A stretch of DNA of 64,000 bases from an uncultured Chloroflexia bacterium (lineage in GTDB: Bacteria > Chloroflexota > Limnocylindria > QHBO01), in NCBI GenBank assembly GCA_963825525.1, contig CAWGTN010000002.1, forward strand, positions 256,001 to 320,000. The letters run 5' to 3'. The notes under the pieces are model-generated. The model did not search any database. It saw nothing but the letters and a program-made list of their open reading frames with translations, and was not told the origin of the DNA. This document shows positions 13,421 to 16,030 of the stretch, piece by piece (the first letter of the stretch is position 1; each line of letters opens with the position of its first letter). Position numbers and translations under genes: made by a program.

Positions 13421-16030
13421 GTGGCAATCACTCACGAAGCCGAAATCGGCGGCAAGGTCTTCAGCATGGAGGCCGGCAAGCTCGCCGAGCAGGCGGACGG
13501 GGCCGTCATCGTTCGATACGGTGACTCCGTCGTCCTCGCGACTGCGGTCGCATCCAAGGAGCCCCGCGAGGGCGCCGACTTCTTCCCGCTCACCGTCGAC
13601 TACGAGGAGCGGATGTACGCCGCGGGCAAGATCCCGGGCGGATTCATCAAGCGCGAGTCGCGCCCGTCGGAGGCCGCCATCCTGGCGATGCGCCTCACGG
13701 ACCGCCCGCTCCGCCCGCTCTTCCCGAAGGGCTACTTCAACGACGTTCAGGTCGTCCTGACGGTCCTGTCGACCGACCAGGAGAATGACCCGGACATCCT
13801 TGCCCTCAACGGCGCATCAGCCGCCCTGAGCATCAGCAACATCCCGTTCATGGGCCCGGTCGGCGCCGTGCGCGTCGGTCGAATCGGCGGCGAGTTCGTC
13901 ACCAACCCGACGAACACGGAGCTGGCGACCAGCGAGCTCGACCTCGTGGTCGCAGGCACGCGCGAGGCCGTCATGATGGTCGAGGCGGGCGCGAACATCC
14001 TGCCCGAGTCCGTCATGGCCGACGCCATCGCCTACGGTCACAGCGAGCTCCAGAAGTCGATCGACCTCCAGGAGAAGCTGGTTGCCTCGGCAGGCACCCC
14101 GAAGAAGGTGCCGTTCGTGGGTCCGAAGGCTCCCTCGGTCGTGCAGCTCGGCAAGGCCCTGGCCGAGTCGAAGAACGAGTTCGTGGTCTTCGACCTCGAA
14201 ACGACGGCCATCAAGCCGGAGCACGGCTACATCGTGGACATCGCGGCGCTGCGGCTCCGCGATGGACAGATCGTCGACCGGTTCGAGACCCTCGTGAACC
14301 CCGGGCGCCCGATCGTCGGCCACCAGGTTCATGGCATCAAGACCGATGACGTCGCCAATGCGCCCACCGCCGCCGATGCGCTCACCCAGTTCGTCGACTG
14401 GGTCGGTGACACGCCGGTCGTGGCGCACAACTCGTCATTCGACGTCCCGTTCGTCCTCCGCCACCTGCCGACTGACCGCACCTGGAACCCGAGCGCCGTG
14501 TACGACACCCTGCAGCTCGGATATCAGCTCTACCCGGACGCGGGCGGCTACAAGCTCGCCGATCTCGTGCGATTCGTCTTCGGCCGCGACCATGCGTCCG
14601 CGCATCGGGCGATGCCCGATGCCGAGGCCACCGCGGAGCTCTTCCTGCACTTCACCAGCGGACTGTCGGAGCGCCTCGATGCGGTGCGACAGGACATCGC
14701 CGACGAGGTGCGTCGCGCCCGTGACAACTACAACCGCGCCGAGCAGGGCGATCGGCTCGAGGACATTCGCCGGCGCCACGGCATCGGCTCTTCGCTCATG
14801 GACACGATCACCAAGGCGACCGTCCGCGAGCTGGTCCTGAACGAGAACGTCCGCATCGACGGGCGCGACACGAAGACGATCCGGCCGATCAGCGTGGAGG
14901 TCGGCGTGCTGCCGCGAACCCACGGCTCGGGCCTCTTCACCCGCGGCCAGACGCAGGCACTCTCGATCGCGACGCTCGGACCGAGCAGCGATGTCCAGCG
15001 CATGGACACGATCTCACCGGAGACCGAGAAGCGCTACATGCACCACTACAACATGCCGCCGTACTCTGTCGGCGAGGCGCGCTTCATGCGTGGGCCCGGT
15101 CGGCGAGAGATCGGTCATGGCGCGTTGGCCGAGCGTGCGCTGGTGCCGGTGCTCCCGGATGTCAGCGAGTTCCCGTACGTGATCCGCGTCGTCAGCGAGT
15201 GCGTGAGCTCGAATGGATCGACCTCGATGGCCTCGACCTGTGGGTCGACGCTGGCTCTCATGGATGCCGGAGTGCCGATCAAGGCGCCGGTCGCCGGTGC
15301 CGCGATGGGGCTGATCAACGACAAGGAGTCGGGTCGCTACGCCGTCCTGACCGACATCACCGGCAAGGAAGACGCCTACGGTGACATGGACTTCAAGGTG
15401 ACCGGGACCGCCGAAGGCGTGACTGCGCTCCAGATGGACATCAAGGTTGCCGGCATCACGACCGAGATCATGCGAGACGCGCTCGAGCAGGCTCGCGAGG
15501 CCCGGCTCCACATCCTGGGCAAGATGACCGAGGTCATCGGCACCAGCCGCGAGGAGCTCAGCCAGTACGCGCCGCGCATCACGACGCTGAAGATCCCCGT
15601 GGACAAGATCCGCGACGTCATCGGCGCCGGCGGCAAGGTGATCCGCCAGATCACCGCTGAGACCGGGACGCAGATCAACGTCGAGGACGACGGTACGATC
15701 CAGATCGCCGCAACCGACGGCGAAGCCGCCAAGAAGGCGATCGCATGGATCGAAGGCCTGACCAAGGACGTGGAGGTCGGCAAGGAGTACCTCGGCAAGG
15801 TGACCCGGATCATGAACTTCGGTGCCTTCGTCGAGATCCTGCCCGGCAAGGAGGGCCTGGTGCACATCAGCCAGCTCGCCGATTACCGGGTGCCGCGCGT
15901 CGAGGACGTGGTCAGCATCGGCGACGAGCTGATGGTGATCGTCACCGAGATCGATCGCATGGGTCGCGTGAACCTGAGCCGCCGCGCGGCGATGGAGCGG
16001 CACATGGCCAAGGCCGGCGACCGAAGCTGA
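13421..16030 (+). CDS. pnp: Polyribonucleotide nucleotidyltransferase (PNPase) with an inserted DEDDh 3'-5' exonuclease domain
   Basis: [41 protein letters not shown] and S1 domains; insert 14177-14653 has [24 protein letters not shown] start 13421 after GGAGG. Confidence 0.97.

Follow-up and report, generated by a model that had tools for sequence, protein, structure and literature searches.

PNPase is among the most studied enzymes of RNA decay, a homotrimeric ring that acts by phosphorolysis, and the arrangement of its domains is considered invariant between bacteria and human mitochondria. A locus in an uncultured Chloroflexota bacterium (Limnocylindria; genome of 2.58 Mb, 91.84% complete) raises the question of what an additional domain nested within this enzyme is, where it came from and what it may do. 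The DNA that we analysed, a stretch of 64,000 nucleotides (the window), contains the following two adjoining genes.

12982..13263 (+ strand): rpsO, encoding ribosomal protein S15; this gene usually precedes pnp (ORF; Pfam Ribosomal_S15, E 1.6e-35)
13391..16030 (+ strand): pnp, PNPase (ORF; TIGR03591, 984 bits)

The pnp ORF starts 127 nt downstream of rpsO and encodes 879 aa counted from the first ATG, with the stop codon within the coordinates. This bears out the initial annotation, which had described an rpsO-linked pnp ORF of about 870 aa. The gene is single-copy, as one full match was present in the 2.58-Mb genome and the two other matches were to S1 domains only. The PNPase equivalog model (cut-off 525 bits) matched the protein in two stretches separated by an insert. 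According to Pfam, genes of RNA metabolism surround pnp: rpsO, truB, RNase J and a gene for a DHH/DHHA1 NrnA-like protein at 10136-11119, which lies 2 kb upstream in the same gene cluster. A uracil-DNA glycosylase gene is found directly 3′ of pnp. A promoter/terminator scan revealed no promoter-like site around pnp, and two terminator-like sites were on the minus strand and at chance level.

The primary structure of the pnp product was then divided into domains as follows.

13463..14044 (+ strand): RNase PH domain 1 (Pfam RNase_PH at residues 25-152, RNase_PH_C at 155-218)
14045..14176 (+ strand): all-alpha linker, part 1, residues 219-262 (helices 206-234 and 247-258 in the model; aligns with 5yjj to residue 266)
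14177..14662 (+ strand): nested DEDDh (DnaQ-like) 3′-5′ exonuclease domain, residues 263-424 (Pfam, domain model, Foldseek)
14663..14860 (+ strand): all-alpha linker, part 2, residues 425-490 (helices 425-442, 449-463 and 467-485 in the model; partial PF03726 match at 467-493)
14861..15565 (+ strand): RNase PH domain 2 (PH2), catalytic (alignment to 5yjj 312-707; SNGSTSMAS at 607-615 and a ten-residue motif at 660-669)
15581..15754 (+ strand): KH domain, residues 731-788 (Pfam)
15770..15985 (+ strand): S1 domain, residues 794-865 (Pfam)

The Pfam domains RNase_PH, RNase_T, KH and S1 thus follow one another in the order that had been predicted. The linker between the conserved residues K239 and D490 comprises 250 aa here versus 85-86 aa in four canonical relatives, corresponding to an insertion of 164 aa, in agreement with the in-frame insert of about 160 aa proposed after RNase PH domain 1. 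The structure of a canonical PNPase, 5yjj, could be aligned over residues 16-262 and 469-866 (E 1.4e-220). The helical domain had initially been considered shortened, a view that the data do not support. Although PF03726, the model of this domain, covers just residues 467-493 and scores under its cut-off (21.9 versus 24.6), about 90 linker residues are left once the exonuclease fold of about 160 aa is subtracted, and in the structure model five predicted linker helices surround the insert, with helices on both of its sides. The proposal that the PNPase core is intact agrees with the Pfam domains and with PH2, where N608, G609, S610, S612, D661, G664, D665, D667 and K669 were identical in 55/55 aligned sequences. 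SNGSTSMAS and the ten-residue motif are what we take to be the phosphate- and metal-binding motifs of PH2, with roles known from E. coli. As had been noted from the sequence, nothing points to an intein beside the insert; Pfam reported no intein or Hint family in the pnp protein, and the GC content is 0.65-0.68 across the insert without a break. Compared with canonical bacterial PNPases (TIGR03591; 5yjj, 4nbq, 3cdi, 7ogk, 4am3, 1e3h), the protein shares the two RNase PH domains, an all-alpha linker as predicted by the model, KH and S1, the rpsO-pnp synteny and the conserved PH2 motifs, but differs in some 164 extra residues that form a DEDDh fold between the linker helices.

The insert matched PF00929 (RNase_T) at residues 265-418 over the full profile (1-164) with 82.8 bits (cut-off 24) and an E value of 5.4e-23, a match whose absence would have spoken against an exonuclease. 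All three DEDDh motifs were present, and every position that the initial annotation had listed for them was correct.

14192..14200 (+ strand): ExoI, FVVFDLETT at residues 264-272, with D268 (14192-14194) and E270 (14198-14200)
14441..14443 (+ strand): ExoII, HNSSFD at residues 346-351; coordinates are those of D351
14603..14620 (+ strand): ExoIII, HRAMPDA at residues 405-411, with H405 (14603-14605) and D410 (14618-14620); the H-x4-D pattern defines the DEDDh subgroup

In an alignment of 51 fused proteins (A1), E270, D351, H405 and D410 were kept in all 51 and D268 in 50, the exception being a protein (P0052) with Y in place of this ExoI aspartate. Across the three families that carry the fusion (f1, f3 and f4, see below), the catalytic residues were kept in 16/16 sequences, while the insert of f1 shares just 37-46% identity with those of f3 and f4. 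In 14 comparisons, dN/dS was 0.07-0.21 for the insert versus 0.035-0.195 for PH2.

The domain model of the insert was predicted with high confidence (pLDDT 91.8), and Foldseek gave a probability of 1.00 for its similarity to PolC, DinG, epsilon, RNase T and ExoX. The best PDB match of the model was the exonuclease of Staphylococcus aureus DinG (TM 0.83, rmsd 1.8-1.9 A), followed by PolC (TM 0.80) and then epsilon and RNase T; RNase T structures ranked under PolC, DinG, a CRISPR-associated DnaQ domain, epsilon and ExoX. At the sequence level, the best PDB exonuclease match was 2p1j (E 1.9e-19), and the NCBIfam exonuclease models ranked in the order of the PRK07883 DEDD family, PolC and DinG. 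No Orn or RNase T model was among the best 25 of the 67 NCBIfam matches of the pnp protein. The DEDDy-type PF01612 did not match this protein, whose ExoIII has H and not Y. The insert shares its DEDDh motifs and fold with the PolC proofreading domain and Pol III epsilon (2p1j, 9qpc/9qrn, 1j53, 2gui), but is neither part of a polymerase nor a free epsilon subunit, and we saw no sign of a link to the replisome. The nearest relatives of the insert in both sequence and fold are DinG/PolC-type exonuclease domains, and it is best explained as a folded DEDDh 3′-5′ exonuclease of this type, predicted to be catalytically competent.

Concerning the distribution of the fusion, 850 proteins matched at E<=1e-3, and the best 120 of the 850, encoded on contigs of up to 2.2 Mb, all combined PF00929 with PF01138. 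A divergent query added 553 further matches. Hundreds of assemblies obtained independently of one another have the fused architecture, some of them on contigs as long as 2.2-2.9 Mb, and the proteins are present in public databases under generic names. When relatives were surveyed, the same architecture was found in three Limnocylindria families, with strong insert matches in 64/66 (f1), 60/60 (f3) and 7/7 (f4) genomes. Matches spanning both insert junctions were present in 33/33 sampled genomes of these families. When genomes from the remaining classes of Chloroflexota were searched, 0/268 had such a match. The possibility that the fusion is class-wide was rejected, as the insert matches in families f2 and f5 belong to a separate DinG-type protein and pnp was canonical in the 5/5 genomes checked. 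We also considered that some f1 members might have an insert-less pnp, and rejected this as well. Among five f1 genomes with no match (G060, G174) or a partial one (G192, G159, G102), none had an intact canonical pnp, the gene being unassembled, broken at contig ends or split in two frames. In two f1 genomes (G192, G159) the split lies inside the insert, where sequencing error or decay is possible. Judged indirectly, from the names of the matches and from Atlas clusters, one MAG labelled Acidimicrobiales (P0365) has the fusion outside Chloroflexota, possibly owing to an error in binning or labelling.

A tree of the PNPase core, calculated without the insert columns, united the fused proteins with a support of 100/99. 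The insert clade was supported by 98 in one exonuclease tree and by 100/94 in another. Outgroup domains for the trees came from a representative search with the insert alone (26,252 matches, few of them full-length fused proteins). The insert tree mirrors the core tree, with f1 opposed to f3 and f4 in both. On the evidence of these trees, the insert was gained once, in the ancestor of the three families.

The protein that f2 has instead of a fused PNPase consists of RNase_T, DEAD and Helicase_C_2 domains. Its sole match in the genome studied here was the pnp insert, and its helicase body (DEAD, Helicase_C_2) had no match in this genome; the pnp protein is therefore not a DinG, although its exonuclease domain is DinG-like. 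The DinG helicase body was found in 62/66 f2 genomes and the single f5 genome (1/1), versus 1/66 in f1 and 1/60 in f3, both weak partial matches, and 0/7 in f4. Gram-positive DinG (S. aureus 8zef/9ii8, B. subtilis, Listeria) and the f2/f5 homolog have the same DEDDh fold, the best superposition being that on S. aureus DinG. On the other hand, the exonuclease of DinG is N-terminal whereas the insert is internal to PNPase, and the insert shares no more than about 27% identity with S. aureus DinG and 36-42% with the f2 proteins. In the trees, the group that is sister to the insert clade contains 18/18 verified DinG-type domains. The node joining the two has moderate support (SH-aLRT 89 in one tree, 83/71 in another), and the best tree did not contain a strict clade of the insert and verified DinG-type domains only, for which lnL was lower by 43.5 and p-AU was 0.0645. 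The fused lineages have lost the separate DinG-type exonuclease-helicase, which is retained in their sister families, and the fusion has therefore probably assumed the exonuclease role of that protein.

We also surveyed other nucleases. The only PF00929 match in this genome, and hence the sole DEDDh domain found, was the pnp insert, and exactly one such match was present in 45/50 f1 and 37/44 f3 genomes. A free-standing Orn or RNase T (PF00929), RNB (RNase II/R), PF01612 (RNase D) and RNase E/G were not found in this genome, absences that are provisional given a completeness of 91.84%. Bacteria that lack Orn usually rely on a DHH/DHHA1 NrnA-like protein as their nanoRNase. RNB was detected in 0/121 genomes of the class Limnocylindria and in 20/201 Chloroflexota genomes. 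We considered whether the fusion compensates for a loss of RNase II/R and rejected the idea: RNB is rare throughout the phylum and missing also from families without the fusion, so that comparison gives no support to a compensation for RNase R.

Previous studies on PNPase and DinG bear on how the fused protein may work. The PNPase helical domain is reported to be located across the torus from S1/KH, to form part of a side pore leading to the active site and to influence PNPase activity (PMC2723993). As the insert resides in the helical domain, this agrees with the earlier suggestion that hydrolytic sites may be carried opposite KH/S1. Listeria DinG is reported to be a dual 3′-5′ RNase/DNase that prefers DNA in vitro but acts on rRNA precursors in vivo, where it initiates the degradation of unprocessed rRNA; its authors suggest that RNase R and PNPase finish this degradation (PMC12774634). 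B. subtilis DinG is reported to degrade ssDNA and, in hybrids, the RNA strand; it prefers ssDNA and hybrids, removes R-loops and does not cleave free ssRNA with Mg2+, indicating that RNA activity is not universal for this type of domain (PMC12525004).

From the above we infer the activity, the substrate, a cooperation with the PNPase sites and a takeover from DinG. On balance, and with modest confidence, we favour the reading that a hydrolytic exonuclease of DinG/PolC type, which entered PNPase once, is attached to the PNPase ring in three copies and has probably taken over the exonuclease role of DinG. As PNPase is a trimer, three phosphorolytic sites inside the ring and three hydrolytic sites opposite KH/S1 would be expected, the latter adjoining the side pore of the helical domain. 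These hydrolytic sites would trim single-stranded 3′ ends in a phosphate-independent manner. Their main substrate may be RNA, for example the 3′ tails of unprocessed or structured RNA, and activity on ssDNA or RNA-DNA hybrids, as in DinG, would be likely too. Hydrolysis would start or finish substrates that are poorly handled by phosphorolysis. Since the hydrolytic sites would be opposite the RNA entry face, one 3′ end could not occupy both sites at once.

PNPase has DNA repair roles in Bacillus and mycobacteria, and the nested exonuclease could have DNA or R-loops as its main targets instead of serving RNA decay, a possibility that we consider rather unlikely. The closest relatives in sequence and fold, PolC and DinG, act on DNA, the distribution of the fusion is complementary to that of the DinG exonuclease-helicase, and a uracil-DNA glycosylase gene directly follows pnp. 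The preferences of B. subtilis DinG for ssDNA and hybrids (PMC12525004) and of the Listeria enzyme for DNA in vitro (PMC12774634) point in the same direction. However, the host protein and its neighbours (rpsO, truB, NrnA-like, RNase J) belong to RNA metabolism, the work of Listeria DinG in vivo is on rRNA precursors (PMC12774634), and there is no helicase body of the kind through which DinG gains access to DNA structures. The main idea of the initial annotation was that the DEDDh sites constitute a built-in, Orn-like nanoRNase finishing the 2-5-nt limit products of PNPase. The lack of a free-standing Orn or RNase T among the genes found would fit this, and the insert adjoins the pore to the phosphorolytic site (PMC2723993), conceivably an exit for short products. 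A dedicated role of this kind is nevertheless not favoured and appears rather improbable, as an NrnA-like protein is encoded in the same gene cluster, sister families get by with a canonical PNPase, and the closest relatives are of the DinG/PolC type and not oligoribonucleases. In addition, the authors of PMC2723993 consider that NDP and phosphate, rather than RNA, pass through the pore.

We give still less credence to a catalytically silent insert, with which the helical domain would have acquired a module for structure, regulation or nucleic-acid binding. The D268Y variant in P0052 is in line with such a module, and because the helical domain is reported to influence PNPase activity (PMC2723993), any insert there could be regulatory. 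On the contrary, 50-51 of 51 proteins retain each of the five metal-binding/general-base residues despite a sequence divergence of about 40%, the dN/dS of the insert is as low as that of the catalytic PH domains, and the predicted fold is complete and confidently modelled. As for an assembly chimera, a mis-called ORF or an intein-like mobile insertion, to which we assign next to no probability, we found nothing in its favour, the origin of the genome as a MAG being the sole prior ground for doubt. Identical in-frame architecture across hundreds of independent assemblies, the smooth composition, the lack of a match to an intein family and the agreement between the insert and core trees all oppose this reading, which is thus refuted to the extent that sequence data allow.

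The preferred reading, a DinG/PolC-type exonuclease built into the PNPase ring, resembles other partnerships of PH-domain rings with hydrolytic enzymes. The ring of the eukaryotic exosome is teamed with Rrp6. In the Caulobacter degradosome, PNPase is reported to be teamed with RNase D, a hydrolytic 3′-5′ exonuclease of the DEDD superfamily (PMC4245959). Rrp6 and RNase D are both separate DEDDy proteins (PF01612 type) recruited in trans. All of these combine a PH ring or PNPase with a DEDD hydrolytic exonuclease, but in the protein described here the exonuclease is of the DEDDh type and fused in cis. The parallel with the exosome and Rrp6 drawn initially is thus fair as an analogy and does not extend to a homology of arrangement. 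A possible, but clearly more doubtful, elaboration is that the protein is a bacterial counterpart of exosome-Rrp6 that arose by relocation of a domain. In one sub-clade of Limnocylindria, a DinG-type exonuclease would have left its helicase and been built into PNPase, the helicase then being lost. Within one and the same trimer, hydrolysis would make the start on defective or structured RNA and phosphorolysis would continue. Literature searches found no paper describing a PNPase with a nested DEDDh exonuclease, in line with the novelty claimed at the outset, and no solved PNPase structure with such a domain was found.

If the insert is indeed a second, hydrolytic site in each protomer, the fused PNPase would provide a natural system for studying the division of labour between phosphorolytic and hydrolytic 3′-5′ degradation. 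It could also inform on the role of the poorly understood helical domain and side pore, and it bears on what DinG-type exonucleases do once parted from their helicase. The complementary pattern within one class, in which genomes have a fused PNPase or a DinG exonuclease-helicase and not both, offers a clean comparative handle. Limnocylindria are abundant in soil and freshwater and have small genomes. With their exoribonuclease set very reduced, the fused PNPase is probably central to RNA turnover in these bacteria. If the domain also keeps the DNA/R-loop activity of DinG, these cells would depend on PNPase as their only DEDDh nuclease, whether for the quality control of RNA or for maintaining the genome.

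The pnp gene lies in a conserved row of RNA-metabolism genes on the + strand of the window.

10136-11119, +, DHH/DHHA1 NrnA-like gene, candidate nanoRNase, first gene of a row continuing with truB, ribF, rpsO and pnp
10998-11993, +, truB
11990-12919, +, ribF
12982-13263, +, rpsO
13391-16030, +, pnp, a long ORF of 879 aa
16033-16743, +, UDG-superfamily (uracil-DNA glycosylase) gene, PF03167, E 2.6e-35, directly between pnp and RNase J
16752-18416, +, RNase J

The UDG-superfamily gene is a DNA-repair gene in a row otherwise of RNA metabolism. Its true start is uncertain because the longest ORF call overlaps the 3' end of pnp.

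The pnp product was scanned against Pfam, and the initial annotation of an in-frame DEDDh exonuclease insert was confirmed. On re-reading the ORF, all motif and codon coordinates proved exact. The domains and the five catalytic residues are as follows.

Residues 25-152, RNase_PH
Residues 155-218, RNase_PH_C
Residues 265-418, RNase_T/PF00929 (82.8 bits, E 5.4e-23)
Residues 467-493, partial match to the PNPase helical domain
Residues 731-788, KH
Residues 794-865, S1
14192, +, ExoI D268
14198, +, ExoI E270
14441, +, ExoII D351
14603, +, ExoIII H405
14618, +, ExoIII D410

The product matched the PNPase equivalog model with 984 bits, in two pieces. No intein family was matched in the Pfam scan, and no break in GC content was found across the insert. 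Residues 16-262 and 469-866 align to 21-266 and 312-707, respectively, of the solved S. epidermidis PNPase (5yjj), and therefore about 206 residues stand where 5yjj has about 45. Taking K239 and D490 as conserved anchors gives a linker of 245-250 aa in 16 fused proteins (with the insert) versus 85-86 aa in four canonical relatives (without it), and the net insertion in the source pnp is 164 aa. When the whole protein was modelled with AlphaFold2 (mean pLDDT 78, pTM 0.72), the insert came out as a confidently folded alpha/beta domain (263-422) flanked by linker helices on both sides, H206-234 and H247-258 before it and H425-442, H449-463 and H467-485 after it. The helical domain, initially described as shortened, is thus split rather than shortened. 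According to Nurmohamed et al. (2009, PMC2723993), the PNPase helical domain is on the opposite side of the torus from S1/KH, where it contributes to a pore that offers another way into the active site, probably used by NDP and phosphate. This placement supports the geometry first proposed, with the insert on the face opposite KH/S1.

The insert has a complete DEDDh fold, is under strong purifying selection and sits in an otherwise intact PNPase. The five DEDDh residues are invariant in 16 genes from three families, between which insert identity is only 37-46%. When 55 sequences (51 fused, four canonical) were aligned, all 51 fused proteins retained E270, D351, H405 and D410, 50 of the 51 retained D268, and the motif positions of the second RNase PH domain (PH2) were invariant in 55/55. 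The sole catalytic-residue change among the 51 is in P0052 (884 aa), a protein with 'LY' versus 'FD' elsewhere; this ExoI Tyr may come from a sequencing error, or the protein may be a naturally inactivated variant. Nei-Gojobori dN/dS values of the source gene against 14 same-family genes (one of them, L006, from an unpublished genome) were 0.07-0.21 for the insert, 0.035-0.195 for PH2 and 0.08-0.24 for the first RNase PH domain, one value of the latter being unreliable due to a truncated frame (L005). For a model of the insert domain alone (pLDDT 91.8), the best PDB matches comprised PolC (9qrn/9qpc, TM 0.80) and S. aureus DinG (8zef/9ii8, TM 0.83, rmsd 1.8-1.9 Å), together with a CRISPR-associated DnaQ domain, epsilon, RNase T and ExoX.

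When only the insert region served as query, 850 proteins were matched at E<=1e-3. Among these, the best 120 all carried PF00929 and RNase PH domains, were mostly 860-890 aa long and lay on contigs of up to 2.2 Mb; their named sources were 'Candidatus Limnocylindria', Limnocylindrales or Chloroflexota MAGs. With a divergent member as query, 553 further proteins of the same kind were found, and ESM Atlas clusters with RNase_PH and RNase_T held 109-164 members, mostly Chloroflexota. The only named match outside Chloroflexota, which came from the divergent-member search, was a fused PNPase (P0365, 861 aa) from an 'Acidimicrobiales bacterium'; misbinning, mislabelling or transfer may account for it.

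Five families (f1-f5) of the class Limnocylindria were compared. Genome counts for the insert, junction, helicase-body and PF00929 searches include some unpublished genomes, and no conclusion rests on those alone. The insert query matched 194/201 genomes of the class. Matches were strong (E 1e-34 or better, frames of ~860-960 aa) in 64/66 f1 (three of the f1 matches being partial), 60/60 f3 and 7/7 f4 genomes; those in f2 and f5 were weak (5.5e-7 to 8.6e-22 only). A class-wide fusion was rejected: whole-protein searches found canonical pnp in 5/5 genomes (four f2, one f5), aligning in two blocks (16-243 and 471-869) within 737-801-aa frames, and the weak f2 matches were to another protein, of 886 aa, that has RNase_T, DEAD and Helicase_C_2 domains, a DinG-type exonuclease-helicase. 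A query covering both insert junctions (residues 150-520) matched end-to-end in 33/33 sampled f1, f3 and f4 genomes, the source genome counted, and in 0/268 genomes of other Chloroflexota classes. In the latter, pnp (frames of ~730-890 aa) matched just the first 90-140 query residues and the exonuclease part matched other genes. Among f1 genomes without a full match, pnp was missing from the assembly, interrupted by contig ends or divided between two frames, and no intact insert-less pnp was found. In two f1 genomes with few contigs, pnp breaks into two frames inside or close to the insert (G192:C1:529805-532415 and G159:C7:467529-470119), which could be frameshift error or pseudogenisation.

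In a PNPase core tree with the insert columns removed, the 16 fused proteins grouped in a single clade (UFboot 100, SH-aLRT 99), as did the f2/f5 proteins in another (100/99). The insert sequences also formed one clade (support 98 in one tree, 100/94 in the other), splitting f1 from f3+f4 as in the core tree. A single gain of the insert would be the simplest history.

The fusion is restricted to a clade without the DinG exonuclease-helicase. The helicase body of the f2 DinG-type protein was present in 62/66 f2 and 1/1 f5 genomes, 1/66 f1 genomes (42% identity, in a frame of 107 aa at the edge of a contig), 1/60 f3 genomes (36% identity, within a frame of 2041 aa) and 0/7 f4 genomes. The sole match of the f2 protein in the source genome was the pnp insert. 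In exonuclease-domain trees (167 and 80 domains), the insert clade grouped with DinG-type N-terminal domains, its sister group holding every one of the 18 rows that were verified or inferred to be DinG-type, along with 8 of short or unknown architecture. As the joining node has only moderate support (SH-aLRT 89 in one tree, 83/71 in the other) and the best tree lacks a strict clade of the insert plus DinG-type rows only (the AU test does not reject it, p-AU 0.0645), a DinG-type origin and functional takeover from DinG are plausible rather than proven.

The pnp insert is the single PF00929 match in the source genome, and exactly one match was found in 45/50 f1 and 37/44 f3 genomes of 90% completeness or more. 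Four of five f4 genomes (G011, G056, G065 and G104; 1.0-1.4 Mb) encode a second, small PF00929 protein (206-246-aa frame). One f1 genome, G012, has three matches, and the strongest of the class sample (123.6 bits, G012:C27:1421-1891) is located in a 667-aa frame other than pnp. RNB (RNase II/R), PF01612 (RNase D type) and RNase E/G domains were not found in the 91.84%-complete source genome. In the wider samples, RNB was detected in 0/121 class genomes and in just 20/201 genomes from the phylum, so that missing RNase R is a trait at phylum level; we rejected it as an explanation of the fusion. RNA decay in Chloroflexota seems to involve a very reduced set of 3'-5' exonucleases, with RNase J present in the source genome.

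Among the papers listed by a full-text literature search, no title or abstract opening concerned a PNPase with a DEDD fusion. A search for a PNPase 'exonuclease domain' in Chloroflexi gave no paper, and 'polynucleotide phosphorylase' with DnaQ and 'domain architecture' led only to a B. subtilis DinG paper. PNPase, exonuclease and DinG are absent from the main text of the main Limnocylindria genomics paper (PMC13212565). The fused proteins are already in public databases under generic names. They are a real and conserved form of PNPase that has apparently gone undescribed.

As for function, a non-catalytic role of the insert is unlikely owing to its conservation, and a nanoRNase role is less likely because an NrnA-like gene is encoded upstream of pnp. 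A mainly DNA/R-loop role of the nested exonuclease is a rival to one in RNA metabolism. The substrates of B. subtilis DinG are ssDNA and, in hybrids, the RNA strand, whereas free ssRNA is cut only with Mn2+ (PMC12525004). Listeria DinG has both RNase and DNase activity in the 3'-5' direction and selectively initiates the breakdown of unprocessed rRNA, with completion by RNase R and PNPase suggested by the authors (PMC12774634). We infer that the trimer of the fused PNPase would carry three hydrolytic sites on the face opposite RNA entry. These sites would trim 3' ends without phosphate, and would hand substrates to, or receive them from, the phosphorolytic ring. RNA quality control would most likely be their field of action.
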